From Chromatiaceae bacterium (lineage in GTDB: Bacteria; Pseudomonadota; Gammaproteobacteria; Chromatiales; Chromatiaceae): 24,000 nucleotides of DNA. The position numbers were made by a program, and so were the translations under genes. Shown in pieces: positions 1 to 14,716 of the stretch (its first letter is position 1; the number at the start of each line of letters is the position of its first letter). The stretch covers positions 4,942 to 28,941 of the forward strand of contig JACDZG010000011.1 of assembly GCA_013426805.1 (NCBI GenBank). The letters run 5' to 3'. The notes under the pieces were generated by a model, which was not told where the DNA came from, ran no database searches, and saw only the letters and a program-made list of their open reading frames with translations.

Positions 1-819
1 GAGCTCTTGCTTCAAGCCCTGAATAACGATGCCATCTATCTAGGGCCTTACAGACGACTGCCGTCCCGGGATTTTCGGCTGAGAGACGCGCCTTCCGCGC
101 CCGACTGGGGAAGTGGACTTGCCGCCTGGTATGCGTTGGCAGGCGCCGCCGATCCCTCGCTTGTGCAGCGGGTGAACGACTGGCTGTCCGGATCCAGCAC
201 CGGCTTTCGCACCGACTATTCCGTGGCAGTCCATCGAAATAAGATTGTCCCGATGGAAAGCTCGCTTTGGCAAGACCTCATGTCGGGCGATCTCGGCGCC
301 ATCGCGGACTCGATTCGCGAGCGACTTGAACAATTGCCGGAGGATGCGAATAAGCTTGAGCTTTGCGATGTCCGGACGGGCGTTTCGCTGGCACCCCAGG
401 ACCTTGGGGTGGGTATGTCGCAGCTCATTCCGGTCGTGGTCGCGGCGTTGCGACACGCCGCGGGAATCGTCGCCATCGAGGAGCCCGAGTCGAACCTCCA
501 CCCGGCCTTCCAGGTCGTCCTAGCCGACTTGTTCATCAGCCAGGCAAAGAGCAATCCCGACGCTCTGTTCCTGATCGAAACACATAGCGAGCACCTGATG
601 CTGCGCTGCCTGCGCCGGATCAGAGAAACGGCGAAGGGCGTCTTGCCGGAGGGAGTCCAGGCGGTGGTGCCGGATGACATCGCGGTGCATTTTGTCGAGT
701 CGACGGGAAGCGGGCCGCAGATTCGCCGCATCGAAATCGACGAGGATGGGGATTTCATTGACGAATGGCCCGGCGGTTTTTTTGAGGAGTCGTTCCATGA
801 AAAGTTTGCGGGGCGCTAA
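1..819 (+). CDS. AAA_15/AAA_21 (ABC-type) ATPase, C-terminal part with DUF3696-like tail; 5' end lies outside the window
   Basis: Frame 1 is open from base 1 (track ORF 7..819). It has Walker B/D-loop IVAIEEPESNLHP, H-loop LIETHSEHL, a GVGMSQLIPVV signature-like segment, and the C-terminal DEDGDFIDEWPGGFFEESF tail that I recognise from DUF3696-type ATPases. There is no Walker A in the window, so the N-terminus is missing. Confidence 0.75.
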   Translation, partial: ELLLQALNNDAIYLGPYRRLPSRDFRLRDAPSAPDWGSGLAAWYALAGAADPSLVQRVNDWLSGSSTGFRTDYSVAVHRNKIVPMESSLWQDLMSGDLGAIADSIRERLEQLPEDANKLELCDVRTGVSLAPQDLGVGMSQLIPVVVAALRHAAGIVAIEEPESNLHPAFQVVLADLFISQAKSNPDALFLIETHSEHLMLRCLRRIRETAKGVLPEGVQAVVPDDIAVHFVESTGSGPQIRRIEIDEDGDFIDEWPGGFFEESFHEKFAGR

Positions 820-821
820 GC

Positions 822-1832
822 ATGCTAGTTCCATTCGTCGTAGATCCTGAAAGTCTCGTACCGGAACCTTCGCAATCCAACGCGGACGCGTTGGATAGCC
901 ATATCGCGTTTCTGGAAACCTGGCAGCGCATTGGTCTATTGATATATGAAGAACCAACTTTTGAAGGGAGCCAGCTATGGCATAAGATTCATAAATTGCC
1001 CCAGTCCATCAGGTCGCTTTGGATGGAATTCCTGAAGCATAAATACGCCCTGATGGCCCCGACTCACAGAGGTTGGAGCGGGCATGTTTCTTACATCGCC
1101 CTGGAGCAGATCGTTGGCGAGGTTTCTGTTGCATTGGTTGATGAGACGATTGCTCTTGGGGAACTCAATCTCCCAGAAACCGACCTGCCAAAGGTCGTTG
1201 GAGGGCAAGGCGGTGTTGAGGTTTGCCTGCTGCGACGCGCAGGTCGCTCCCAAGTCTTCCAGGACGCAATAAAGCGTTCGGGAACACATATTCCTGGCGG
1301 TCAAGGGTACGAAACGACTTGGGCCGAGCGCTTTTATCGTTTGGCGACTGCCCCGATTAAGCATGTCGTTGTCGTTGACCGCTACGCGGTATGCCGGCAT
1401 CTAAACTGCCGACATGAGCATTATCTTTCGGGTATCGAGCGGTTCGTTCGCTTGCTGGACAGAGATGCCACTGGCCCGCGCCATCTCACCCTGTTTTCCG
1501 CCTTTGCCGAGGAGTGCCGAGAGGACATGCTGCCTGAGATAGAAGACTCACTCCGATGCATATTGCAGAGACTGTCCCGAAGGAACGTGAAGCGATTGAA
1601 GCTAGTGATGACAAAGAATTTCATATTTGGCCAAGACGCTCACGATCGCTTCGTCCGATTCGGCGACCATATTTGGGACTTGGGGATCGGCCTCGAAATT
1701 TTTGAGGGCTCGGCTTCTCCTGCGCGTTGCTCGGCGACGTTCAAGGCTCGAATCTGGGCGGATGACTACAGAGAGATTGAGCGGGCAATCGAATGTCATC
1801 CGAAAACGCTTGCGCGTAACATAGTCGCATAG
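822..1832 (+). CDS. hypothetical protein; C-terminal half resembles the MIT_C (MITD1 C-terminal, phospholipase-D-like fold) domain; partner of the upstream ATPase
   Basis: The ATG lies 2 nt after the ATPase stop (TAAGCATG). VVVVDRYAVCRH...IERFVRLL and HDRFVRFGDHIWDLGIGLEIF resemble, from memory, MITD1 IIEDPYIRHTHQ...FLRFCEML and [22 protein letters not shown]. The N-terminal ~170 aa are unassigned. Confidence 0.55.
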   Translation: MLVPFVVDPESLVPEPSQSNADALDSHIAFLETWQRIGLLIYEEPTFEGSQLWHKIHKLPQSIRSLWMEFLKHKYALMAPTHRGWSGHVSYIALEQIVGEVSVALVDETIALGELNLPETDLPKVVGGQGGVEVCLLRRAGRSQVFQDAIKRSGTHIPGGQGYETTWAERFYRLATAPIKHVVVVDRYAVCRHLNCRHEHYLSGIERFVRLLDRDATGPRHLTLFSAFAEECREDMLPEIEDSLRCILQRLSRRNVKRLKLVMTKNFIFGQDAHDRFVRFGDHIWDLGIGLEIFEGSASPARCSATFKARIWADDYREIERAIECHPKTLARNIVA

Positions 1833-2859: not shown

Positions 2860-4316
2860 CAGCCCTTTTAACGTGCAGCCAACATGCTGTAAGATATAGC
2901 TAATTTAATTTTTTTCGCGGACCCCATTGATCATGTTTGGTGAGATCCTCCAGAAATTTGCCGAGAAAAGTCCAGTCACCGTCATGGTGCGCGCCCTCTT
3001 GGAGCAGTTGCTCAACGCTGAAAAACTGGACCGCTGGTTCGAGGAGACACGCTGCAAGCAGTATACGCGCGACATCCTGTTTTCCTCTCTGGTCGGACTC
3101 CTGCTGCAAGTCGTCTGCAAGACGCGATCAAGCGTGCATGCGGCCTACCGCCATGCCGAGACTGGCACCTCCATCGTCGCCGTATACAAGAAATTGAAAG
3201 GGATCGAGCTGACCACTTCCCAAGGCTTGGTTCGTTACATTGCCGGGGAGTGCCGTGTCATGATCGAAACGATGCACGGTGAGCGTCCGGCGCTGCTGCC
3301 GGGGTACCGCGTGAAGTATCTGGATGGCAATTGTCTGGCGGCCACCGAGCATCGTTTGAAGCCGTTGCGCGACACGGCGGCGGGCCCCTTGCCCGGCAAG
3401 TCGCTGGTGGTGTTCGATGCCCAATTGGGCATCGCCGCGGATGTCTTTCCGTGCGCCGATGGACATGCCCAGGAGCGGGCCCTGCTGGGTAACGTGATTC
3501 CTACGGTGCAAGCGAAGGACGTGTGGGTCGCCGACCGGAATTTTTGTGTGACGCACTTCCTGTTCGGGATTCATCGCCAACAGGCGTATTTCATCATTCG
3601 GGAACATGCGGGGATTACGCCTAAGCCATTGGAAAAAATAAGATTTATTGGTCACAGCAAGAGCGGTGAAGTGTATGAGCAAGACATCCAGTTGACCGCT
3701 GCCGATGGCGCGCAACTGGTCCTGCGTCGCATCACCGTCATGCTCAACAAGAAGACCCGCAATGGCGATACGCGTCTGGTTCTGTTGACGACGCTGCCGG
3801 TCGCCGTTGCCGATGCTACCATCATTGCCGAGATCTACCGGACGCGATGGCGAATCGAAACCGCCTTTCCGAAGCTGACCTGCTATCTGAATTCCGAGAT
3901 CGATACGTTGGGTTATCCGCAAGCGGCACTATTCGGATTCTGCCTGGGATTGGTCGCTTTCAATCTCTATGCCGTCATCATGGCCGCGCTACGTGCCACT
4001 CATCCCACCCTGGACATCGATCAAACGATCTCGGAATACTACATGACGGGCGAGATTGCCGCGACCATGACCGGAATGAACCTGTTCGTTCCCGAGCACG
4101 AATGGCAACCGTTCGCCCACGCCACGCCGGATCAGTTTTGCGTGGCGCTGCTGTGGCTCGCCAGCTGCATTGATCTGCGTATCTTCTCGAAGACGACGCG
4201 AGGTCCGAAGAAACCGCCAACCGCGCGCACTAAATTCAAAGGGAAACCACATGTCTCGACCGCAAAGTTGCTCGCCGCCGCCGTGGTAGACCGAAAGTGA
4301 CACGTTAAAAGGGCTG
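2860..4316 (+). mobile_element. IS4-family insertion sequence (1457 bp) with perfect 16-bp terminal inverted repeats
   Basis: IRL is CAGCCCTTTTAACGTG (2860..2875) and IRR is CACGTTAAAAGGGCTG (4301..4316), its exact reverse complement. There is a single DDE transposase ORF and a flanking 10-bp direct repeat. Ends beginning 5'-CA and a 9-12 bp duplication are typical of IS4. Confidence 0.85.
2927..4300 (+). CDS. IS4-family DDE transposase
   Basis: DDE regions are YLDGNCL and VWVADRNFC, with the C1/YREK signature YRTRWRIETAFPKL. The stop codon abuts IRR. Confidence 0.9.
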   Translation: MIMFGEILQKFAEKSPVTVMVRALLEQLLNAEKLDRWFEETRCKQYTRDILFSSLVGLLLQVVCKTRSSVHAAYRHAETGTSIVAVYKKLKGIELTTSQGLVRYIAGECRVMIETMHGERPALLPGYRVKYLDGNCLAATEHRLKPLRDTAAGPLPGKSLVVFDAQLGIAADVFPCADGHAQERALLGNVIPTVQAKDVWVADRNFCVTHFLFGIHRQQAYFIIREHAGITPKPLEKIRFIGHSKSGEVYEQDIQLTAADGAQLVLRRITVMLNKKTRNGDTRLVLLTTLPVAVADATIIAEIYRTRWRIETAFPKLTCYLNSEIDTLGYPQAALFGFCLGLVAFNLYAVIMAALRATHPTLDIDQTISEYYMTGEIAATMTGMNLFVPEHEWQPFAHATPDQFCVALLWLASCIDLRIFSKTTRGPKKPPTARTKFKGKPHVSTAKLLAAAVVDRK

Positions 4317-5181: not shown

Positions 5182-5415
5182 ATGACAGACATGATTGAAG
5201 CTTGGTACGACGGGAAGGTCTTTCGTCCGACCGGACCGATCGCCCTGGCCCCCAATACCCGCGTGCGCATCACCATCGAGAGCCTGCAGCCCGCCGAGCG
5301 GGAGGCCCCGTCTTTCCTGCGCACGGCGCGCGCGCTTGAGCTGGAAGGCCCCCCCGACTGGTCAGAGAACGTCGACGCGTATCTGTATGGTGGGGAGCGA
5401 CCCCATGTCGACTGA
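5182..5415 (+). CDS. DUF104/AF2212-like antitoxin
   Basis: N-terminus MTDMIEAWYDGKVFRPTGPIALAPNTRVRITIE is the classic DUF104 pattern (I.A.Y.nGvf.P...v.L.eg..V.itI). It overlaps the downstream PIN gene by 11 nt. Confidence 0.75.
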   Translation: MTDMIEAWYDGKVFRPTGPIALAPNTRVRITIESLQPAEREAPSFLRTARALELEGPPDWSENVDAYLYGGERPHVD

Positions 5416-5830
5416 CGTGTTTCTGGACACCGCCTATGCGATTGCTCTTTCCTCGGCAAAGGATCAGTTTCATGTGCGTGCCATCGCGCTCGCCGAGCAG
5501 ATGGAGGCGGCGAGAACTCCACTCGTGACAACCCGTGCGGTTCTTTTGGAAATCGGCAACGCCTTATCCAAGCTACGCTATCGGCAGGCGGCGGTGAAAC
5601 TCCTGGACTCACTCGAAGCGGACCCGACGGTGGAGATCGTCCCGCTTTCCGAGGGGCTCTACGCCCGCGCCGCGAAACTCTACCGGGAGCGCACCGATAA
5701 GGAGTGGGGTCTCACAGACTGCATCTCAATTATTGTCATGCAGGATCGTGGGCTGACCGACGCACTCACCACCGACGGGCATTTTCAACAGGCGGGATTT
5801 CGGGCCTTGCTGCGCGAGGGCTTCTCGTGA
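5405..5830 (+). CDS. vapC: PIN-domain toxin VapC
   Basis: PIN acidic positions are VFLDTAYAI, VLLEIGNAL, LTDCISIIVM, TTDGHF. Start chosen at the ATG at 5405 (track ORF 5195..5830, same frame). Confidence 0.8.
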   Translation: MSTDVFLDTAYAIALSSAKDQFHVRAIALAEQMEAARTPLVTTRAVLLEIGNALSKLRYRQAAVKLLDSLEADPTVEIVPLSEGLYARAAKLYRERTDKEWGLTDCISIIVMQDRGLTDALTTDGHFQQAGFRALLREGFS

Positions 5831-6012
5831 CCATCAATAAAGGGGAGATCGACGCCATCGGCCAAGTGCATTCACTGGAGTCACTCATCCGCCTGCCGCC
5901 CGGTCGCTCCCTGCTCACATTGCTGGATGACCAAGCGAATGAGCCAGCCCTGTTGGCAGAGACGTCGCTGGCCAAAGATCGGGATGCGGCGACCACTGGA
6001 GACACACCATGA
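5827..6012 (+). CDS. possible 61-aa protein bridging vapC and the ATPase (GTG start)
   Basis: The GTG at 5827 overlaps the vapC stop (GTGA) and its stop overlaps the ATPase ATG (ATGA at 6009..6012). No family recognised. Could be non-coding spacer in an open GC-rich frame. Confidence 0.3.
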   Translation: MTINKGEIDAIGQVHSLESLIRLPPGRSLLTLLDDQANEPALLAETSLAKDRDAATTGDTP

Positions 6013-7085
6013 TCGAAAGCGTCGAGCTCAAAAATTTCGGCCCCATTGTGGACTTCGCCTGGCGCGATCTCTCGCCGATCAATCTGGTCATCGGGCGTAA
6101 CGGCACCGGCAAGACCTTCCTGCTCAAGGCGCTGTATTGTGCGCTCCGGGCACTGGAAGAAAAACGCGGCGACGAGCCGATGAGCTCCGGGGAGATCCTG
6201 GAGAAGAAGCTCTTTTGGACCTTTCAATATGACAACCTCGGGGATTTGGTGCGAAGCGGCTCCGCTGCCGACCTGTCCGCGAAGGTCATGCTGCGGTGGC
6301 CGATGTTTCCGCTCGAGCCGGCAAAGCCGCTCGCCTTTTCGATCCCCCAGAACGCCAAGCGGGGCGATGTCCGTTTCAAGAATCAGGCGATCAGAACCCC
6401 TAACTACACTTCGATTTTCATTCCCGCTAAAGAGGTTCTCTCTTTGCACAATGTGATCCAGCGGACGCGCCGGGACCTGCGCTTGTTCGGCTTCGACGAT
6501 ACCTATCTGGATCTTGTCGACGCCTTGAGCTATCAACCAGACGTCCTCGACTATCCGCAAGGCGTAGCGCAGCCGATGTCAGCGCTTCACCAGCGGGTTG
6601 GTGGCCGTGCCGATTACGATCTCGTCATGACGCCATCTCAGGGCATTCCGATTCCTCAAAGCGTCTGGCGCTTCCGCGTCGGCGATCGGGAGCACGCAAT
6701 CGGTCTGGCGGCCGAGGGTGCCCGCAAGCTCGCAGTCTTGGATCGTCTTCTGCGTAACCGCCAGCTACGCAGAGGGTCGATTCTGTTTGTCGATGAGCCC
6801 GAGTCGACGCTGCATCCGGAGGCGATCACCGCTTTTCTCGATGTGCTTTATTCATTGGTCGAGGCGTTCGGCCAGGATATTCAGATCTTCCTCGCAAGCC
6901 ACTCCTATTTTGTCGTCAAGAAACTGTATCTGATCGCCCAGGAGAAGGGAATCTCGATTCCCGTGGCCATGGCCGAAGGGGACCACTGGGAGACCGCCGA
7001 TCTGAAGGACGGCATGCCTTCCAATCCCATTATCGATGAGTCTATCCGGCTTTACAAAGAAGAAGTGGACCTGGTGTTGAAATGA
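6009..7085 (+). CDS. ABC/AAA_21-type (RecF/SMC-like) ATPase
   Basis: N-terminal IESVELKNFGPI, Walker A GRNGTGKT, signature-like LAAEGARKL, Walker B/D-loop ILFVDEPESTLHP, H-loop FLASHS. GGAG RBS lies 8 nt upstream. Confidence 0.85.
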   Translation: MIESVELKNFGPIVDFAWRDLSPINLVIGRNGTGKTFLLKALYCALRALEEKRGDEPMSSGEILEKKLFWTFQYDNLGDLVRSGSAADLSAKVMLRWPMFPLEPAKPLAFSIPQNAKRGDVRFKNQAIRTPNYTSIFIPAKEVLSLHNVIQRTRRDLRLFGFDDTYLDLVDALSYQPDVLDYPQGVAQPMSALHQRVGGRADYDLVMTPSQGIPIPQSVWRFRVGDREHAIGLAAEGARKLAVLDRLLRNRQLRRGSILFVDEPESTLHPEAITAFLDVLYSLVEAFGQDIQIFLASHSYFVVKKLYLIAQEKGISIPVAMAEGDHWETADLKDGMPSNPIIDESIRLYKEEVDLVLK

Positions 7086-7609
7086 ATGTTGGGGCGATTG
7101 TCGAGTCTGGCATGTCCTTCGGACCGTACCCTCAGGGGCACTGCTTCCATATCGAACGCAGCCGACTGTATGGGCGGATCGCGCACGGCGTCAAGATGGC
7201 TGAGATGATCGTGTTGCCTTGCGCCGCTGCCGATCCACCGCGCCTGTGGATCATCGAAGCGAAGTCGAGTACACCCCGTCCGGAGACGCAGCCGAGCTTC
7301 GACGACTTTATCTGCGAGATCCGCGGCAAGCTGATGAACGCCTTGACGCTCTTGATTGCGGCCTCGCTCGGACGACATGAGAACGGGCGCGACGCGCTTC
7401 CCGAGACCTTCAAGACGACCGATTTTGCTCGGGCCGACTTTCGGCTGGTGCTGGTCATCAACGGACACCAGGATGCTTGGTGCGTTCCCTTGCAGGATGC
7501 GTTGTCCAAAGCGCTGCACGCGACCGTGAGAACCTGGGCGCTCAAACGGACGTCGGTTGCGGTTATCAACGATGCCACGGCGCGACGATATGGACTGATT
7601 GATCTTTGA
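7082..7609 (+). CDS. small protein with a putative PD-(D/E)xK (restriction-endonuclease-like) core; partner of the ATPase
   Basis: ATGA overlap with the ATPase stop. A hydrophobic strand KMAEMIVL is followed ~12 aa later by LWIIEAKSS (ExK on a beta-strand-like segment), the usual spacing of PD-(D/E)xK motifs II/III. No other family recognised. Confidence 0.5.
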   Translation: MNVGAIVESGMSFGPYPQGHCFHIERSRLYGRIAHGVKMAEMIVLPCAAADPPRLWIIEAKSSTPRPETQPSFDDFICEIRGKLMNALTLLIAASLGRHENGRDALPETFKTTDFARADFRLVLVINGHQDAWCVPLQDALSKALHATVRTWALKRTSVAVINDATARRYGLIDL

Positions 7610-7684
7610 TCACCGATCAGGGCGGCGAGTCGAAGGTAACCCGATGTTGCGTACCATCGCATTAGCGATCTACGTTGGGGCCAA

Positions 7685-7830
7685 GGGCCGTAGCTTGGGG
7701 TGAGAAGCGAAATCCATACGCTTGTGCCGCTCCGTTGGGCTTCCCCGCGCCCCGACACTCCGGCGTCGCGTGGCTAATCGGGCCGCTGGAGCGGCCAAGA
7801 CTGCATTCCCACGCGGAGCGTGGGAACGAG
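7685..7830. repeat. copy 2 of the ~140-bp structured REP/MITE-like repeat
   Basis: See 5021..5158. The terminal hairpin here is TTCCCACGC-GGA-GCGTGGGAA. Translation gives the HAERGNE/PRGAWE-type pseudo-peptides typical of such repeats in GC-rich gammaproteobacteria. Confidence 0.85.
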
Positions 7831-7891
7831 ATGGTTCCGATTGCGATGATCGCACGCCGCCGGCGTGCACTACTTATCAGGAGACCAAGCA

Positions 7892-8080
7892 ATGCAAACC
7901 GCAAAACAACAAGCCGAATCAGTGCTGCGGCACCTGCCCGACAACTGCACCCTGGAGGATATCCAGTATCATCTCTATGTGCTTGAGAGGATCGGCAACG
8001 GTCGGAACGATATCGAGGACGGTCGCTCATTCACGGCTGACGAGGCGAAAGAGCGTCTGGCATCATGGCTGCCGAACTGA
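7892..8080 (+). CDS. putative type II antitoxin (partner of a ParE/RelE-type toxin)
   Basis: 62-aa ORF with AGGAG RBS ~8 nt upstream of the ATG at 7892 (track ORF starts at GTG 7865). It overlaps the start of a ParE/RelE-like reading frame by 16 nt. The C-terminal EDIQYHLYVLERI...DIEDGR...EAKERL pattern is seen in small antitoxins. Confidence 0.55.
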   Translation: MQTAKQQAESVLRHLPDNCTLEDIQYHLYVLERIGNGRNDIEDGRSFTADEAKERLASWLPN

Positions 8081-8223
8081 TCTGGGCGCTGGAGGCGCTC
8101 GACGATATCGATGCGATGGCCCGCTATATCGCCCGCGATTCGGCGGTCTACGCCCGGCGCGTCGTCTTGGAGATGCTCGAACTTGGTGAGTTATTCCTGA
8201 CGCAGCCGCTGAATCGATCATAA
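8065..8223 (+). pseudogene. truncated ParE/RelE-family toxin (52 codons, roughly the N-terminal half)
   Basis: MAAELIWALEALDDIDAMARYIARDSAVYARRVVLEMLELGELFLTQP matches the ParE/RelE N-terminal helices (i.w...A..dl..i..yia.d.p..A.r.v..i......L...P). The beta-sheet half carrying the catalytic residues is absent and the frame stops at 8221..8223. Confidence 0.6.
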
Positions 8224-8259
8224 CCCGACGATATTCAAGCTAAGTTTGCGGAGAGGTCC

Positions 8260-8331
8260 ATGCTCACAATCAGCATGTTTTACGGCATCATCGTCCGGAT
8301 GCTATTCATGGACCACAAGCAACACAATCTG
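8260..8331 (+). pseudogene. DUF4160-family gene stump (first 24 codons only)
   Basis: MLTISMFYGIIVRMLFMDHKQHNL matches the DUF4160 N-terminus (M..Is.FyGI.I.Myf.DH.pPH.H). GGAGAGG RBS upstream. Homology stops at the AT-rich element starting at 8333, and the open frame then runs into it and stops at 8383..8385. Confidence 0.6.
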
Positions 8332-8332
8332 C

Positions 8333-8447
8333 TAAGTACATCAATACAATTGTTTGTATTAAAAGTAATTCTCGTAATATGCTAAAACTATATTTATCAG
8401 CGGCTTATAATAATTGTGTATTACAAATAAATTTATTGATGTACTTA
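8333..8447. mobile_element. AT-rich 115-bp MITE-like element with terminal inverted repeats
   Basis: TAAGTACATCAATA (8333..8346) and TATTGATGTACTTA (8434..8447) are perfect 14-bp inverted repeats that extend imperfectly to ~28 bp. The interior is extremely A+T-rich in an otherwise G+C-rich context. A TA dinucleotide sits at both extremities. Confidence 0.5.
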
Positions 8448-8631: not shown

Positions 8632-9045
8632 TTAGTGCGGGGTTTGCTGTTGTTCGATGTACTGGCGCACGATGGAAATCGGGGCACCACCGCAGGACGC
8701 GGCGAAGTAGGAGGGCGACCAGAGAACGCCCTTCCAGTAGCGCCGCTGGAGGTCCGGCCGCTCTTGGCGTAGCAACCGGCTGGACACGCCCTTGAGGCTG
8801 TTCACCAGGGCGGACACCGCCACCTTGGGCGGGTACTCGACCAGCAGGTGAACATGGTCGTCCTCGCCGTCCATCTCCACCAAGGTGGCCTCGAAGTCGG
8901 TGCAGACCTTGGCGAAGATAGCGCGCAGGCTGGCGATAGCCTCGCCGTCGAAGACCTTGCGGCGGTATTTCGCCACAAAGACCAAGTTGACGTGCATCGC
9001 AAAAACGCAGTGCCGCCCGTGCCGAATGTCGTTGTCGTTGCTCAT
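8632..9045 (-). CDS. tnpA: IS200/IS605 Y1 (HUH) transposase TnpA
   Basis: HUH motif DHVHLLV, catalytic Tyr region LWSPSYFAASCGG, length 137 aa from MSNDNDIRHGRH (track ORF extends 14 codons further upstream). Confidence 0.9.
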   Translation of the reverse strand: MSNDNDIRHGRHCVFAMHVNLVFVAKYRRKVFDGEAIASLRAIFAKVCTDFEATLVEMDGEDDHVHLLVEYPPKVAVSALVNSLKGVSSRLLRQERPDLQRRYWKGVLWSPSYFAASCGGAPISIVRQYIEQQQTPH

Positions 9046-9058
9046 AGACCAATATACT

Positions 9059-10294
9059 ATGGACATGCAGCGTCTCCAAGCCTTCAAGTTCGAGTTGATG
9101 CCCGACGGCGATCAGGCGCGCGACATGCGCCGCTTCGCCGGATCGTGCCGCTTTGTCTTCAACCGGGCGCTGGCGATACAACAGGCGTTGCACGAGCAGG
9201 GGGCGAAAAAGCTCGGGTATCCGGCGCTGTGCAAGTGCCTCACCGAGTGGCGCAACAGCCCGGAAACCGCATGGCTCGCAGAGGCCCCGGTGCATCCGTT
9301 GCAGCAGACCCTCAAGGACCTGGAGCGGGCCTATACCAACTTCTTCGCCAAGCGCGCCGACTTTCCCCGCTTCAAGAAGAAAGGCCGGTCCCGCGACAGC
9401 TTCCGCTACCCCGACCCGAAACAGATCAAGCTCGACCAGGCCAACGGGCGCCTGTTCCTGCCCAAGCTGGGTTGGCTGCGCTACCGCAACAGCCGCGATG
9501 TGCTCGGCACGGTGAAGAACATCACCGTCAGCCAGTCGGGCGGCAAGTGGTTCGCGTCGATCCAGACCGAGCGTGAGGCGGAGATCCCGGTTCACCAGGG
9601 CACGGCCGTCGGGATCGACCTGGGCATTGTTCGCTTCGCTACCTTGAGCGACGGCGCAGTGTTCGAGCCCCTGAGCAGTTTCAAACGTCAGGAACAGGCG
9701 TTGGCGAAGGCGCAGCGCGCCATGAGCCGCAAGACCAAGTTCGGGAAGAACTGGAAGAAGGCGAAAGCCCAGGTCCAGCGCATCCATACCAAGATCGCCA
9801 ACGCCCGGCGCGACTACCTGCACAAGACCACGACCACGATCAGCCAAAACCACGCGATGGTGTGCATCGAGGACTTGAAGGTTCGCAACATGTCGGCGTC
9901 GGCGGCCGGGACGATCGAAGCGCCGGGTACCAACGTTCGGGCCAAGTCCGGCCTGAACAAAGCCATTCTCGACCAGGGTTGGTTCGAGTTCCGCCGACAA
10001 CTGGACTACAAGACGGCGTGGAGCGGTGGGCACCTGGTCGCGGTGCCCCCACAGAACACCAGCCGAACCTGTCCGTGCTGCGGGCATCTCGCCAAGGAGA
10101 ACCGGCAGACTCAAGCCCGGTTCGCGTGCGTGGAATGCGGTTTCGAGGAAAACGCCGATTTAGTCGGCGCGATCAATGTTCTAAGGGCGGGACACGCCCG
10201 GTTAGCCTGCGGAGAGACTTCGCTCATTGGAGCGTCGGCCCAGGAACCCGCCGAAGCGACTATTCGCGAGCAAGCTTTGCGCGTAGCGCCGTAG
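9059..10294 (+). CDS. tnpB: TnpB (IS605 OrfB-type RNA-guided nuclease)
   Basis: N-terminus MQRLQAFKFELMP. RuvC motifs are VGIDLGIV, VCIEDLKV, NADLVGAINV. Zinc finger is CPCCGH...CVECGF. Start taken at ATG 9059 (the upstream part of track ORF 8885.. is antisense to tnpA). Confidence 0.9.
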   Translation: MDMQRLQAFKFELMPDGDQARDMRRFAGSCRFVFNRALAIQQALHEQGAKKLGYPALCKCLTEWRNSPETAWLAEAPVHPLQQTLKDLERAYTNFFAKRADFPRFKKKGRSRDSFRYPDPKQIKLDQANGRLFLPKLGWLRYRNSRDVLGTVKNITVSQSGGKWFASIQTEREAEIPVHQGTAVGIDLGIVRFATLSDGAVFEPLSSFKRQEQALAKAQRAMSRKTKFGKNWKKAKAQVQRIHTKIANARRDYLHKTTTTISQNHAMVCIEDLKVRNMSASAAGTIEAPGTNVRAKSGLNKAILDQGWFEFRRQLDYKTAWSGGHLVAVPPQNTSRTCPCCGHLAKENRQTQARFACVECGFEENADLVGAINVLRAGHARLACGETSLIGASAQEPAEATIREQALRVAP

Positions 10295-10344: not shown

Positions 10345-10490
10345 GGCTCCGGAATCCCGGTTTTTTCGGCTTGGCCCGGGTAGCGTACGGTACCGTGACC
10401 TGGCCCGGTGAGATCGATATCGCCCCCGAAACCCTCTATGTCGAGGCGGTGCCGGAATGCGACGATGAAAAGGAGTCGATCTCACTGTGA
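10329..10490 (+). pseudogene. DUF2442-family gene, 3' fragment (53 codons plus stop)
   Basis: YPVFQRLRNPGFFGLARVAYGTVTWPGEIDIAPETLYVEAV... carries the DUF2442 C-terminal signature (vF.pL.dp..F..v.v...gtv.WP.g.DiaPe.LY). It is in frame with 8447..8551 once the IS is removed. Confidence 0.7.
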
Positions 10491-11467
10491 CTTCGCCATT
10501 TCAGGAACCGCTCATGGACACCCAGCCGCCCAACCCGGACTTTGCCGACCGCGCCCGCGCCGCCCTGCTCGCCCACGCCTGCGGCGACCGCTTCGGTGCG
10601 CCGCTGGAGTTCGTATCGGATCTCAGCGTGCGGACGCGCGCGGTCCACTTGGGCAATTGGACCGACGACACGCACATGTCGCTGTATCTCGGCGAGGCGC
10701 TGCTGGCCTATGGTCCCATCACGGACCAATCACCCTTTGCGGCTGATCGGTTCGGGACCCTGGTGGGTGAGGCTTTCGTGCGCTGGCTGCATGATCCACT
10801 GACTCCGACTACCGCACCCGGCAACACCTGCCTGACCGGTGCACGCCATTTCGAGCGTGACCGTGACTGGAAAACCAGCGGGATCCGATCGTCCGACGGT
10901 TGCGGGGCGGTGATGCGCATCGTTCCCATTGGACTCGCCTGGCGCGGGGAGGCGCTGCTGGAGGCGGCCCGGGTCTCGGCCCTGGTCACCCACGCGCATC
11001 CCAATGCGCTGGAAGCGGCGATGGCCGGGGCCTGGCTGGTCGGGCGGATTCTGGAGACCGGGGTCTGGGGCGCGGCCTGTGTGGAAGACGCGATCCGGCA
11101 TCTGGATGGACCCTGGAGTCAGGGCGGGAACCTGGCCGAGAGTCTGAGCGCCGCGCTGGACTGGGCGCAGCGGGGCAAGGAGTGGCTGGACGAGCCGGCG
11201 ATTCCACTGGGTGACGGCGGCTGGCGCTCGGGCAGCGCGTTGGGGCTCGCGGTGGCCGCGGCACTGCGCTGGCCCGACGACCTGGGGTTGGCGATCGAGA
11301 AGGCAGCGCGGATTCAGGGCGATTCGGACTCGGTGGCCTGCCTGACCGGCGCCCTGCTGGGGGCGGCCCTGGGGACAGCGGCGATCCCGCCGGCATGGCT
11401 CGCGACGCTGCCGCGGCGCGCCGAGATCGCCGGTCTGGCGGATCGGTTGGCGGCCATCAGGGCGTAG
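10487..11467 (+). CDS. ADP-ribosylglycohydrolase (ARH/DraG) family protein
   Basis: ARH motifs are ACGDRFGAPLEF, WTDDTHMSL and the C-terminal GDSDSVACLTGALLGA. The track start is a GTG overlapping the DUF2442 stop. An ATG at 10514 with AGGA 7 nt upstream is an equally good start. Confidence 0.8.
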   Translation: MTSPFQEPLMDTQPPNPDFADRARAALLAHACGDRFGAPLEFVSDLSVRTRAVHLGNWTDDTHMSLYLGEALLAYGPITDQSPFAADRFGTLVGEAFVRWLHDPLTPTTAPGNTCLTGARHFERDRDWKTSGIRSSDGCGAVMRIVPIGLAWRGEALLEAARVSALVTHAHPNALEAAMAGAWLVGRILETGVWGAACVEDAIRHLDGPWSQGGNLAESLSAALDWAQRGKEWLDEPAIPLGDGGWRSGSALGLAVAAALRWPDDLGLAIEKAARIQGDSDSVACLTGALLGAALGTAAIPPAWLATLPRRAEIAGLADRLAAIRA

Positions 11468-11575: not shown

Positions 11576-14500
11576 ATGCCCAGCACACCGGCCCCGTCAC
11601 CCGACCAAGACCCGTTTCTCTTCGACAGCGAGCAGATCCATGCGCTGGCCCCGCCCGGGCTGATTCGCAGCGCGCTGCGGCATTGCCAAGACAAACGCGT
11701 CACCGCGCTGGACTCGGACGGCGAGCGGCTGTGGGCGCGGGTCGAGGATGCGGAGACCGAAGCGCAGTTGGATCTGACCCTGGGCTATGACATCGATGGG
11801 AATCTCCGCTGCGAGTGTCAATGCGAAGCGGATCCGGACGGGCTCTGCGTGCATGGCCTGGCGGCCCTGTTTGCCCATAGTCAGGCGAGCGGCAGCGCCG
11901 GGGCGCTGACCGGGGCCGTGGCGGGCGCGATCGAGGAGCGTGCACTGCGCGGGCGCACCGAGGTGCAGGTGGAGCCGGTGTCGGGCGGCGATTGGCTCGG
12001 GACCTGGCGGGCGCGGTCCATCAATCCCACCGGGTATCTGCCCACCAGCTATCTGGTACACATCCGCTCGCTGACCCGCCGTGCCAACTGGTGCACCTGC
12101 CCGGACTTCGCCACCAATCAGCTCGGCACCTGCAAGCATGTGGAGGCGGTGCTCCATCGGCTGCGCAAACGCAAGGGCTTCAAGAAGGCCCGAGACGGGG
12201 CTCCGGACACCGCCTTCGTCTACCTGGATTGGGAGTGTGAGAACGCGCCGGCCGTGCGGTTGCAGCGCGCGGGTGAGACGAGCGTCGAGTTGGCGTCGCT
12301 GCTGAACGAACACTTCGACGCGGCTGGGGTCTTCCGGGGGCGGCTGCCGGACGGGCTGTTGCGGCTTGCCGATACCCTGGCTGGACGGCCCGATATCGAA
12401 ATGGGCGAGGACACCCTGGGCTTCGCCCGTCGACTGGCGGAGGACGCCGCCCGCCAGATCCGGGCGCAGGAGATCGGCGAGCGCATTCGCGCCGGCGGCG
12501 GGCGCCTGCCGGGTGTGCGGGCCACCCTCTATCCCTATCAGGTCGACGGGGTCGCCTTTCTGGCCGGACGCGGGCGTGCGCTGCTCGCTGACGACATGGG
12601 TCTGGGCAAGACGCTTCAGGCCATTGCCGCCGCGCATTGGCTGCACCAGCACGATCAGGTGGAGCGGGTACTGGTGATCTGTCCGGCCTCGCTCAAACGC
12701 CAATGGGCGCGCGAGATCGCCAAGTTCACCGGCGCCGAGGCGGAGGTGGTGCAGGGGCCGGTGGCGGGGCGCGCCGTCCAATACCGCAAAGGGACCGGCT
12801 TTTATGTCATCAACTATGAACTGGTGTTACGCGACCTGAGCCTGATCAATGAGACGCTGGGTCCCGATCTGGTGATCCTCGACGAGGCGCAGCGCATCAA
12901 AAACTGGCGCACCCGGATCGCCTCGGCGGTGAAGCAGATTCCCTCGCGCTATGCCTTTGTGCTCACGGGTACGCCCCTGGAGAACCGCCTGGAGGATCTC
13001 TACAGCCTGATGCAGGTGGTGGACCCGCGCGTACTCGGACCGCTGTGGCGCTATCTGGTCGATTTCCACATCACCGATGAACGCGGCAAGGTGCTGGGCT
13101 ACCGTAATCTCTCCGAACTGCGCCGCCGCCTGACCCCGGTGATGCTGCGTCGTGACCGCAGTCTGGTGCGCGATCAGCTTCCGGAACGGATTGAACAGCG
13201 GCTCGACTGCGCGCTGACCCCCAAGCAACAGGAAATCCACGACGAGGCCGTCAATGCCGCGGGCATCCTGGCGCAGATCATGAAGCGCCGGCCGCTGACC
13301 CCGTCCGAACAGAACCGCATGATGGCCGCGTTGCAACGGGCGCGCATGGCCTGTGATGCCGCCGGTCTGGTGGACAAGGAGACCGAGGGCTCGCCCAAAC
13401 TCGACGAGCTGGAGACGATTCTCGATGAACTGTGCCGACTGTCCGGGCTCAAGGCCGTGGTTTTCTCCCAGTGGGAACGCATGACCGAACTGGTGGAGCA
13501 GCGGGTGCGGCGCATGGGGCTGGGCTCGGTGCGGCTGCACGGCGGTGTCCCCAGCGCCAATCGCGGGGCGCTGATCGACCGTTTCCACGATGACGACGCG
13601 GTGCAGGTCTTCATCTCCACCGATGCCGGCGGTGTCGGCCTCAACCTGCAATGCGCCTCCGTGCTGGTGAATCTGGACATTCCCTGGAATCCGGCGGTCC
13701 TCGATCAGCGCATCGCCCGGATTCACCGGCTCGGTCAGCGCCAGCGGGTTCAGGTGATCCTGCTGGTGGCCCCGGACTCCTATGAGGAGCGGGTCCTGGG
13801 TCTGGTGCAGGGTAAGCGCGTGCTGTTCGACAATGTGGTGGACCCGGAAGCGACCGAGGACGTGGTCGATGTCTCCAAGCGGCTGGCCGAGGTCCTGGCC
13901 GGGGATCTGGCGGGTCCGGATGAGCGGGGAGCGACCGAGCACGCGGCCTCCGCCGAGCCTGAGCCTGAGCCTGCCGCGGACCTGCCCGCGGTCGAGCCGC
14001 CGGCCGCCCTCGCCGCGCCGGAGGACGAACCGAGCGTCGCGACGCCAAGCGACACGGCAGCATTACCCGAGCCGCCGCGCGGGTCACTCCCCACCGAAGC
14101 GGTGCGCGGCTGCATCATCGCGCTGCAAGACCGCTTCGGTACGCGGATCGAGCGCATCCTGGCCAGCCGCGGCGGGCTGCTGGTGGTGATGGACAGTACC
14201 GACGCGGAGGCCGACCAATTCGCCGAGGGGCTGTCGGATCAGCTCCCGATCGCGCTGATCGACCGCCGCACCCTGGCCGGGCTCCAACGGCTCGGGGCGG
14301 CCTCGCCGGCGGCGGAGGGCGAGATCCTGTTCGAGGCGGGGGCCGCACCGGTTCCCGTCGAGGGTCATCCCCTGGCCCGTCAGGCCCAGGCCAAGCTCGA
14401 GGGTGCTCGGGTGCTGCTGGCGCAGACCCAAGCCGGAGCCGCGCTCGGTGGGCCGGCGCTGGACCTGCTGCTCGGTGCCCTGCTGTGCGCCGCGGCGCTC

Positions 14501-14716
14501 CTGACCGGCCGGGCCCAACCGCCCAATCCCCGCGAAGCCGGCATCTGGCTTTATGGGGAGGCGCTGCCGACCGGTGCCATTGAGCCCGCCGATGCCGCCC
14601 TGGTGATGCGTGCCATTGCCCTGGCCCAGGCAGCGGAGGCCGTGCCCTTGGCTTTGCTGGAGGATTTGGCCGCGGATACCGAGCCATTCATACAACGGGT
14701 GCGAGGACGTGCGTAG
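11576..14716 (+). CDS. SNF2-family helicase with two N-terminal SWIM zinc fingers and a ~290-aa Ala/Pro/Leu-rich C-terminal extension
   Basis: SWIM motifs are CECQCEADPDGLCVHGLAAL and CTCPDFATNQLGTCKHVEAVL. SNF2 motifs are LADDMGLGKT (I), DEAQRIKN (II), LTGTPLENRLEDLYSLM (III), STDAGGVGLNLQ (V), WNPAVLDQRIARIHRLGQ (VI). Confidence 0.9.
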   Translation: MPSTPAPSPDQDPFLFDSEQIHALAPPGLIRSALRHCQDKRVTALDSDGERLWARVEDAETEAQLDLTLGYDIDGNLRCECQCEADPDGLCVHGLAALFAHSQASGSAGALTGAVAGAIEERALRGRTEVQVEPVSGGDWLGTWRARSINPTGYLPTSYLVHIRSLTRRANWCTCPDFATNQLGTCKHVEAVLHRLRKRKGFKKARDGAPDTAFVYLDWECENAPAVRLQRAGETSVELASLLNEHFDAAGVFRGRLPDGLLRLADTLAGRPDIEMGEDTLGFARRLAEDAARQIRAQEIGERIRAGGGRLPGVRATLYPYQVDGVAFLAGRGRALLADDMGLGKTLQAIAAAHWLHQHDQVERVLVICPASLKRQWAREIAKFTGAEAEVVQGPVAGRAVQYRKGTGFYVINYELVLRDLSLINETLGPDLVILDEAQRIKNWRTRIASAVKQIPSRYAFVLTGTPLENRLEDLYSLMQVVDPRVLGPLWRYLVDFHITDERGKVLGYRNLSELRRRLTPVMLRRDRSLVRDQLPERIEQRLDCALTPKQQEIHDEAVNAAGILAQIMKRRPLTPSEQNRMMAALQRARMACDAAGLVDKETEGSPKLDELETILDELCRLSGLKAVVFSQWERMTELVEQRVRRMGLGSVRLHGGVPSANRGALIDRFHDDDAVQVFISTDAGGVGLNLQCASVLVNLDIPWNPAVLDQRIARIHRLGQRQRVQVILLVAPDSYEERVLGLVQGKRVLFDNVVDPEATEDVVDVSKRLAEVLAGDLAGPDERGATEHAASAEPEPEPAADLPAVEPPAALAAPEDEPSVATPSDTAALPEPPRGSLPTEAVRGCIIALQDRFGTRIERILASRGGLLVVMDSTDAEADQFAEGLSDQLPIALIDRRTLAGLQRLGAASPAAEGEILFEAGAAPVPVEGHPLARQAQAKLEGARVLLAQTQAGAALGGPALDLLLGALLCAAALLTGRAQPPNPREAGIWLYGEALPTGAIEPADAALVMRAIALAQAAEAVPLALLEDLAADTEPFIQRVRGRA

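Follow-up and report, generated by a model that had tools for sequence, protein, structure and literature searches.

A DUF3696-type ABC ATPase and a partner with a predicted MIT_C-type phospholipase D fold as a probable two-gene defence module of a Chromatiaceae bacterium

A DNA stretch of 24,000 nucleotides from a Chromatiaceae bacterium (GenBank assembly GCA_013426805.1, contig JACDZG010000011.1, positions 4,942 to 28,941 of the forward strand), called here the window, begins inside a gene for an ABC ATPase with a DUF3696 tail and carries, two nucleotides after the stop codon of this gene, the gene of a 336-residue protein, called here the partner. The pair is probably a defence module, and we consider it fairly likely that the window starts here with the distal part of a two-gene immune module of the Menshen/HEC-03 type, in which an ABC ATPase is combined with an effector. 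The C-terminal half of the partner is, as predicted from profiles and from a structural model, a MIT_C-type phospholipase D (PLD) fold, and the chemistry of this effector is likewise a prediction from sequence.

C-terminal domain of the partner

The partner gene (822-1832, + strand) encodes a protein of two domains, which AlphaFold2 models with a pLDDT of 94.5 and a pTM of 0.91. The N-terminal alpha/beta domain (about residues 1-160; 822-1301, + strand), which has a conserved MLVPFxxD sequence, gives a pLDDT of 93.8 in a separate model, and the C-terminal domain (about residues 165-336; 1314-1829, + strand) is the one found by the profile, Pfam and Foldseek matches described below. Taken alone, the window partner matches no Pfam (MIT_C at E up to 1 included), NCBIfam or PADLOC model. 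The profile of 40 homologues has one match among 177,635 PDB sequences, MITD1 (4a5z), which lies on the HDRxxRF...GxGL stretch, where the partner reads HDRFVRF..WD.G.GLEVF. Pfam MIT_C matches 13 of the 40 homologues below threshold, with a best E of 3.4e-5 and typical scores of 15 bits (cut-off 25) over positions 17-116 of the 142 in the profile, so the cut-off for membership is not reached. The top PDB match of the AlphaFold2 model in Foldseek is also MITD1 (2ymb_D; E 1.3e-4, probability 1.0, 188 columns, 20% identity), and the next ones are PLD3/PLD4, phosphatidylserine synthase, bacterial PLDs such as that of Streptomyces, and vaccinia F13. A viral structure library gives weak PLD-fold matches alone.

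Two motifs carry the similarity. VVVVDRY (residues 182-188; 1365-1385, + strand) is the counterpart of IEDPY of MITD1 in the alignment, and HDRFVRFGDHIWDLGIGLEIF (residues 274-294; 1641-1703, + strand), which contains H274, R276, R279 and G290, is aligned to the MITD1 motif by the profile; the RFVRLL string occupies residues 207-212. Counted over 121 full-length relatives, W167, D186 and R276 do not vary, G290 is present in 120, H274 and R279 in 109 each, R187 in 105 and D275 in 85. The original prediction, made from the letters of the window alone, had proposed a MIT_C/PLD-like C-terminal half and had held that its proposal would fall if the HDR and DRY positions varied among homologues; these positions are kept as counted above, and the profile, the Pfam matches and Foldseek all point to MITD1. 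The MITD1 strings that it quoted are present in PDB 4a5z and align to the partner motif, and its description of the truncated ATPase, of the 336-residue frame two nucleotides later and of the partner motifs is accurate in every detail.

The MIT_C domain (PF16565) of MITD1 (2YMB, 4A5Z) shares with the partner the fold and the motifs [VE]D[RP]Y and HDRxxRF...GxGL[ED]xF. The partner differs from MITD1 in being prokaryotic and in having an N-terminal domain other than a MIT domain, while the MITD1 domain binds membranes and serves cytokinesis. MITD1 has antiviral activity in human cells, for which its PLD-like domain is dispensable (PMC11962514).

Among the related loci, which are numbered L001 to L031, the partners of the nearest ATPase relatives (L030:7194-7799 and L031:6899-7918) have no BLAST similarity to the window partner. 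They carry VDP[WF][FY] and H[NY]R...GxGLD motifs (VDPF/VDPW and HYR/HNR...GTGLD), which are even nearer to EDPY and HDR of MITD1. These motifs suggest that the MIT_C-like effectors joined to DUF3696 ATPases form a much larger superfamily.

Distribution of the partner and its N-terminal domain

Among 5.8 billion proteins searched, the partner has 56 homologues, which are of about 335 residues, all begin with MLVPF and are all annotated as hypothetical. The closest one, 99% identical, lies on a 9.9-kb JGI contig, called here the near-identical contig. When the C-terminal half served as query in an exhaustive HMMER search, 488 clusters (at 50% identity) were matched with E of 1e-3 or lower, 270 of them at 1e-10 or lower, and nearly all of these proteins have 310-360 residues with the matched domain at about 160-330. 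A word-indexed search with the profile of the same domain gave only fragments of the same family, so the exhaustive search was needed to reach the wider one. Because the 488 clusters share size and domain position, the two-domain layout is, judged from these sequences, ancient and widespread. The close family of the partner is rare, with 18 loci in 185,579 species; its hosts all belong to the beta- or gammaproteobacteria and include Sulfuritalea, Thiobacillus, Accumulibacter, Contendobacter, Rhodanobacter, Thiodictyon and Massilia agrisoli. The 56 homologues, the 488 distant clusters and the recurrent two-nucleotide spacing indicate that the partner gene is real.

The order of secondary-structure elements in the N-terminal domain is compatible with the PIN-like "inPIN" domain of the Menshen protein NsnC. 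No Pfam PIN match is found in the 40 partner homologues at E up to 10, and a search for PIN genes in the loci, made to build a PIN profile, added no further members. An active PIN nuclease with D8, D/E43, D/E107 and D121 as its acidic residues is rejected as a general feature of the domain, because only position 8 stays acidic over the 121 relatives (D/E in 115), while 48 relatives have an acidic residue at position 43 and 57 have one at position 121.

A phmmer match of partner residues 97-132 (window 1110-1217) to HIV-1 protease, with E 0.009, is probably due to chance; it rests on a short ...GELNLPE...GGQGG... stretch and is gone with the family profile. One Gallionella metagenome-assembled genome (MAG) has an open reading frame (ORF) of 841 residues (L024:6676-9201), a segment of which is 40% identical to partner residues 80-264. 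This ORF has no ATPase motifs and its tail is rich in glycine and hydrophobic residues; it could be a fusion, a frameshift artefact or another architecture.

ATPase

Frame 1 of the + strand is open from the first base of the window to a TAA at 817-819 and encodes the last 272 residues of an AAA_15/OLD-ABC-type ABC ATPase that ends in a DUF3696 tail (1-819, + strand). Going by the 729-residue gene of the near-identical contig, about 457 N-terminal residues would lie outside the window. All three Pfam models that match the fragment do so above their cut-offs, namely AAA_15 (48.3 bits, cut-off 32.1), AAA_21 (43.4 bits, cut-off 27) and DUF3696 (34.3 bits, cut-off 22, residues 224-265), which bears out the original assignment to a DUF3696-type ATPase.

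The motifs of the fragment deviate from those of typical ABC ATPases. YLGPYR at the Q-loop position (37-54, + strand) has an arginine in place of the ABC glutamine, and a regular-expression search of the family ATPases finds YLGPLR in most of them. GVGMSQ at the position of the signature motif (406-423, + strand) has GxG for SGG in the family motif comparison. Walker B and the D-loop, IVAIEEPESNLHP (residues 156-168; 466-504, + strand), contain EEPESNLHP, while most relatives have hhhhEQPExHLHP, and ETHSEHL follows at residues 193-199. The DUF3696 C-terminal tail (670-795, + strand), which contains DEDGDFIDEWPGGFFEESFHEKF and WPGGFFEESF (DEWPGGFFEESFHEKFAGR), is nearly identical across 16 family ATPases, in which DE[ED]GDFIDEWPGGFFEESFxEKFxGR is nearly invariant. 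The ATPases of relatives have GPNSAGKS as Walker A, GxGxSQ as signature and also ETHSE; they are long, with 548-735 residues, and their Walker A, Q-loop and signature motifs are set apart by large inserts that vary among them.

The best PADLOC models for the fragment are PDC-M55A (125 bits), NsnB (84 bits) and HEC-03B (67 bits), and the full-length ATPases of relatives score about 140-160 bits with all three. The HEC-03 ATPase model gives 107-153 bits with the full-length relatives, which is not above NsnB or PDC-M55A. Because a genuine system in the same window, HEC-02, scores 409 and 210 bits with its own two models, the ATPase, at about 150 bits, is best described from these scores as a relative, not a member, of the PDC-M55A, NsnB and HEC-03B families.

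One of the loci has a second, paralogous DUF3696-type ATPase of 656 residues (L016:15566-17536), which is 32% identical to the window fragment and lies 5 kb downstream.

Linkage of the pair and its genomic context

The spacer between the ATPase stop and the partner ATG is the dinucleotide GC (820-821, + strand). In every related locus with upstream DNA the ATPase lies directly 5' of the partner with a spacer of two nucleotides (seen in L001, L004, L006, L008, L011, L013, L016, L018-L023 and L029), and the two genes are linked in all of the more than 20 loci examined, including those of distant partner relatives, which have an AAA_15/DUF3696 ATPase directly upstream. Such spacing implies, at the level of sequence, translational coupling of the ATPase and the partner.

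In relatives the pair usually comes after a type I restriction-modification (R-M) operon; it directly follows hsdR-hsdM-hsdS in at least ten loci (L001, L004, L006, L011, L013, L016, L018, L019, L020 and L021), sometimes with a YhcG/DUF1016 gene between them, and it is found without R-M genes in the near-identical contig, L008, L023, L027, L029, L031 and the P0109 contig. Across nine of the loci with R-M genes (the ten above apart from L019), identity is 84-93% for HsdR and HsdM but 53-69% for the partner and 45-83% for the ATPase. This fast divergence within a conserved cassette is a pattern that is expected for immune specificity genes. The original prediction had read the pair as a conflict system, and the embedding in type I R-M loci and defence islands and the fast divergence relative to flanking genes fit that reading. 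HsdR and HsdM are also conserved across MAGs and genomes of different genera, with HsdS, the ATPase and the partner far more diverged. By these comparisons, the R-M loci resemble an R-M cassette that moves horizontally and carries hypervariable cargo on its 3' side.

The gene 3' of the partner is highly variable and belongs to at least 14 unrelated families, which include a RES protein, a protein with two transmembrane segments, a 1500-residue superfamily 1 (SF1) helicase with a MTES_1575 nuclease, a DUF4268/NucS-like protein and DUF2971. In L013, L019, L020 and L023 this gene is on the opposite strand. Because the next gene is either variable or on the opposite strand, the conserved core consists of two genes.

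Two further arrangements were observed near the pair. In L019, the type I R-M genes are separated from the pair by genes (5326-8339) for a TIR protein (494 residues, TIR_2 72 bits) and for a 510-residue protein without Pfam match. In L008 (11082-15593) and L012 (1407-6188), the partner is directly followed by an SF1 helicase (AAA_11/AAA_12) of 1500-1600 residues with a C-terminal MTES_1575/DUF559 (Vsr-like) nuclease; the proteins of the two loci share 91% identity and, by sequence, resemble helicase-nuclease fusions described for some CoCoNuT types.

RtcR-like activator and sigma-54 promoter in relatives

Of about 16 informative loci, 11 (L001, L008, L011, L013, L016, L018, L023, L027, L029, L031 and the near-identical contig) have a sigma-54 activator of about 500 residues, with an RtcR-like CARF N-terminal domain, at the 5' edge of the block of genes on the same strand. 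The activator matches the PADLOC model RtcR_PspF2--CARF_AAA_HTH with 663 bits and adjoins the ATPase directly in L008, L023, L027, L029 and L031. The genes upstream of the ATPase in the relatives encode HsdS, YhcG, the RtcR-like activator or unknown proteins. The original prediction had allowed for further components upstream of the window, and the near-identical contig indeed carries this activator together with the complete ATPase gene.

A -24/-12 element (TGGCAC-N5-xTGC) is found right after the stop codon of the activator, as in TTGGCACGGCATGTGCTT, ATGGCACGTCTTGTGCTA and CTGGCACACTGCTTGCTT. A scan with the sigma-54 consensus, which required 10 of 11 matches, gave 11 sites in 17 sources. 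The elements that lead into the R-M or pair genes are at L001:1959, L008:8288, L011:1355, L013:~118, L016:2984, L018:3093, L020:2971, L023:5273, L029:726 and L031:4754; that of L020 precedes hsdR, with no activator within 3 kb. The repeated position of the element, with a gap of at most 100 nucleotides after the activator, is unlikely to be chance, judging from these sequences. A perfect consensus 16-mer, TGGCACGGTCGTTGCA, is also present at L016:12253 and at L027:4654 (- strand), in the latter divergent from the activator gene.

Defence "superoperons" headed by RtcR, with type I R-M and type II CoCoNuT systems, have been described (Bell et al., eLife 2024, PMC11090510), in a paper that makes no mention of ABC ATPases or DUF3696. 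As in these superoperons, an RtcR-like CARF-AAA-HTH activator at the 5' side is followed here by accessory defence genes in the same direction, type I R-M among them, an arrangement that is found in relatives and, for the locus of the window, is indicated by the activator in the gene list of the near-identical contig. Unlike them, the activator here often adjoins the pair directly, no CoCoNuT is shown, and the sigma-54 promoter can be located in the sequence. Our literature search found no paper that combines RtcR with Menshen or with an ABC ATPase defence system.

Comparison with known systems

Menshen (Li et al., NAR 2025, PMC12065111) consists of the sensor NsnA with ParB-DUF262, of NsnB with AAA_15 and DUF3696, and of NsnC, which has an inactive PIN domain and a variable effector. 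The NsnC effectors include a MIT_C-like class, PB-PLD1, which has an HDR motif and a conserved D/E (PMC12065111). The ATPase of the window shares with NsnB the AAA_15 assignment, the DUF3696 tail, the change of Q to R, that of SGG to GxG and an altered Walker B. The partner shares with NsnC of the PB-PLD1 class the size of about 330 residues, the two domains, the position immediately downstream, the MIT_C-like domain and the acidic residue with HDR, and both Menshen and the pair are frequently associated with type I R-M. The differences are that NsnA (ParB-DUF262 with ParBDB) lies immediately upstream in Menshen and in none of the loci here, that the NsnB model has 345 positions while the ATPases here have 500-735 residues with large inserts and score about 150 bits (84 for the fragment to 154 for full-length proteins against PADLOC NsnB), that no NsnC model matches, apart from one distant relative of the partner at E 9e-4, and that an RtcR-like sigma-54 activator heads the operon in most loci here. 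PF03235/DUF262, the domain of NsnA, is absent from the Pfam lists of all neighbourhoods of relatives, which do not include the window's own upstream DNA, and no DGQQR-type motif is present in 380 kb of loci. Because the census of Li et al. was seeded on NsnA, pairs without NsnA lie outside it (PMC12065111).

HEC-03 (Payne et al. 2024, bioRxiv 10.1101/2024.01.29.577857) is a validated two-gene defence system of an ABC ATPase and a PIN protein, in which both genes are required and overexpression is toxic. Like the pair, it has two genes for an ATPase and an effector, no separate sensor gene, and is embedded in another defence system. While the HEC-03 partner is a VapC-like PIN protein and its host system is Hma, the partner here has an alpha/beta N-terminal domain and a PLD-fold C-terminal domain and is embedded in type I R-M loci. 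PDC-M55, an untested candidate of PADLOC v2 for which no describing paper was found, has as its A-component the best PADLOC match of the ATPase (125 bits; 153-160 bits for full-length proteins), but no PADLOC model fits the partner and the score is far under the level of true members. PARIS (AriA-AriB), Septu (PtuA-PtuB), Gabija and PrrC also use an oligomer of an OLD-type ABC ATPase that restrains or activates a nuclease or toxin and are often embedded in R-M loci, but their effectors have other folds (Toprim, HNH, anticodon nuclease) and their models score at most 85 bits.

Taken together, the sequences suggest that the pair combines the two-gene embedded organisation of HEC-03 with a PB-PLD1-like effector of the Menshen kind, a distinct ATPase with long inserts and RtcR-like control. 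The novelty that the original prediction had attached to the pair was overestimated, since a PB-PLD1 effector with a DUF3696 ATPase is known from Menshen (PMC12065111) and HEC-03 is a two-gene relative. The MIT_C-like effector is already published (2025, PMC12065111), while no description appears to exist of the architecture without NsnA, of the family's size or of the RtcR-like sigma-54 control.

Other genes of the window

The pair is followed by a gene for a RES-domain protein of 307 residues (1899-2822, + strand; Pfam RES 38.1 bits, cut-off 23.2), which begins 66 nucleotides 3' of the partner; no terminator-like site was found in this gap. The protein is unusually long, with the RES domain at about residues 105-254, and the R, E and S positions appear by eye to be present (GRCN, ALAEL, YPSV). 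RES follows the pair in the window, in the near-identical contig and in L029, where it is truncated and 52% identical, and is absent from the other loci. It is a clade-specific third gene and not a conserved component, and RES as the effector of the system was rejected in the same sense, since it is limited to the subclade of the window. The ORF list of the window has no Xre/DUF2384-like ORF between the partner and RES, as a RES-Xre toxin-antitoxin pair would have.

The RES gene is immediately followed by that of an IS4-family transposase (2927-4300, + strand; NCBIfam 95 bits), and the gene list of the near-identical contig has no transposase at this position. A complete HEC-02 system is present 4 kb downstream of the pair, with an ABC ATPase (6009-7085, + strand; PADLOC HEC-02A 409 bits) and an overlapping gene for a partner of 175 residues (7082-7609, + strand; HEC-02B 210 bits). 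Because of HEC-02, the region can be called a defence island; this system is presumably the first ATPase-plus-effector system to which the original prediction alluded when it called the pair a second one. Further genes are an IS605 OrfB/TnpB-like gene (8885-10294, + strand), an ADP-ribosylglycohydrolase (10487-11467, + strand; 173 bits) and a SNF2 helicase of 1046 residues (11576-14716, + strand), whose best PADLOC models are ZorD and DpdE (about 210-219 bits). The ADP-ribosyl hydrolase near RES, a toxin related to NAD+/ADP-ribose, is suggestive.

Proposed mechanism and its alternatives

In the mechanism that we propose for the immune module, the CARF activator, an association seen in relatives, would switch on sigma-54 transcription of the operon. 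The ATPase and the partner, because they are translationally coupled as far as their spacing tells, are probably made together and complexed, with the DUF3696 tail holding the N-terminal domain of the partner. The tail is a probable docking surface for that domain by analogy with the AlphaFold 3 models of NsnB4-NsnC2, in which the N-terminal domain of NsnC is clamped between two DUF3696 tails (PMC12065111). The ATPase would act as sensor and switch, its variable inserts would sense a phage cue, and ATP binding or hydrolysis would release or activate the partner. The PLD-type domain, with D186, H274, R276 and R279, would then act as a phosphodiesterase, probably as a dimer like MITD1 and single-HKD nucleases, on a substrate that is most likely nucleic acid and less likely phospholipid, and the outcome would be growth arrest or abortive infection. 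Because of the sigma-54/RtcR-like control and the position after type I R-M in relatives, the module is probably an inducible second line of defence. A bolder version, which we hold only tentatively, is that the activator, the promoter, the long-insert DUF3696 ATPase and a MIT_C-type PLD phosphodiesterase form a distinct defence system induced by RNA damage, in which CARF sensing and the ATPase inserts may replace NsnA.

Several observations weigh against the proposed immune module. H274 is not invariant, being R, P or another residue in 12 of the 121 relatives, and D275 is replaced by G in 16. The PLD superfamily motif HxK(x)4D(x)6GSxN is absent from the partner and its aligned relatives; HDRFVRFGD... 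of the partner corresponds to HxR, with no conserved D four residues on and no GSxN. Compared with the PDB by Foldseek, the model of the N-terminal domain gives nothing significant, just insignificant TIM-barrel fragments, and PADLOC models match neither the window partner nor 40 homologues and 10 distant relatives. The ATPase reaches about 150 bits with the NsnB, HEC-03B and PDC-M55A models, against 409 for the true HEC-02A member. The activator, the promoter and the R-M context are known from relatives, as the window begins inside the ATPase, and in the near-identical contig it is toxin-antitoxin-like genes, not R-M genes, that lie between the activator and the ATPase. Finally, the PLD-like domain of MITD1, as cited in PMC11962514, mediates membrane association, with no catalysis reported there.

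The MITD1 precedent also speaks for an alternative that we regard as unlikely, in which the MIT_C-like domain is a non-catalytic binder of membranes or ligands and the partner an adaptor, toxicity coming from another gene (in the window RES, which targets NAD+, and elsewhere the variable third gene). The replacement of H274 in about 10% of relatives, with R276/R279 more conserved, is typical of the binding of phosphates or head groups. A variable third gene abuts the partner with a gap of 0-11 nucleotides in L001, L004, L011, L012 and L018, one of these genes having two transmembrane-like segments, and RES follows the pair in the subclade of the window. The pair stands alone, however, in the four loci where the next gene is on the opposite strand, and the third genes come from at least 14 unrelated families that include whole other systems, such as the 1500-residue helicase-nuclease. 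The invariant D and HxR are read as an active site by Li et al. (PMC12065111), and the nucleases PLD3/4 of the PLD family are among the structural matches of the partner.

Somewhat more doubtful still is that the pair is a dependent guard of type I R-M, similar to PrrC, which R-M would keep silent and phage anti-restriction proteins would trigger. Its position directly after hsdS in ten loci, its co-inheritance with highly conserved HsdR/HsdM and the precedents of PrrC and other embedded ABC ATPases would fit such a role, but the loci listed above as free of R-M do not, and the subclade of the window itself is of the R-M-free kind. It is very improbable that the pair serves stress or repair in an RtcR-type regulon, with a PLD phosphodiesterase that trims damaged RNA or DNA ends like TDP1 or PLD3: the consistent RtcR-like CARF activator and sigma-54 promoter, the control of the RNA repair genes rtcBA by canonical RtcR (PMC7790460) and the presence of the same fold in PLD3/4 exonucleases and TDP1 are in its favour, but the close family is sporadic (18 loci), it lies in defence islands or near R-M systems, insertion sequences and toxin-antitoxin genes, it diverges fast relative to neighbouring genes, the other known members of its ATPase family all belong to defence systems, and the superoperons of Bell et al. 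are made of defence genes (PMC11090510).

Implications

The immune-module reading extends the logic of Menshen and HEC-03 to a form that has no sensor gene and is linked to RtcR-like sigma-54 control, and through this link RNA damage would be able to induce an ABC-ATPase defence module. Through its effector, the family of 488 clusters is missed by tools for finding defence systems, such as PADLOC v2. It also offers a tractable bacterial system, with Massilia agrisoli as a cultured host, for asking whether the MIT_C/MITD1 PLD fold catalyses, and, if the bolder version is true, the "non-catalytic" PLD fold of eukaryotic MITD1 would be a descendant of a bacterial immune effector.

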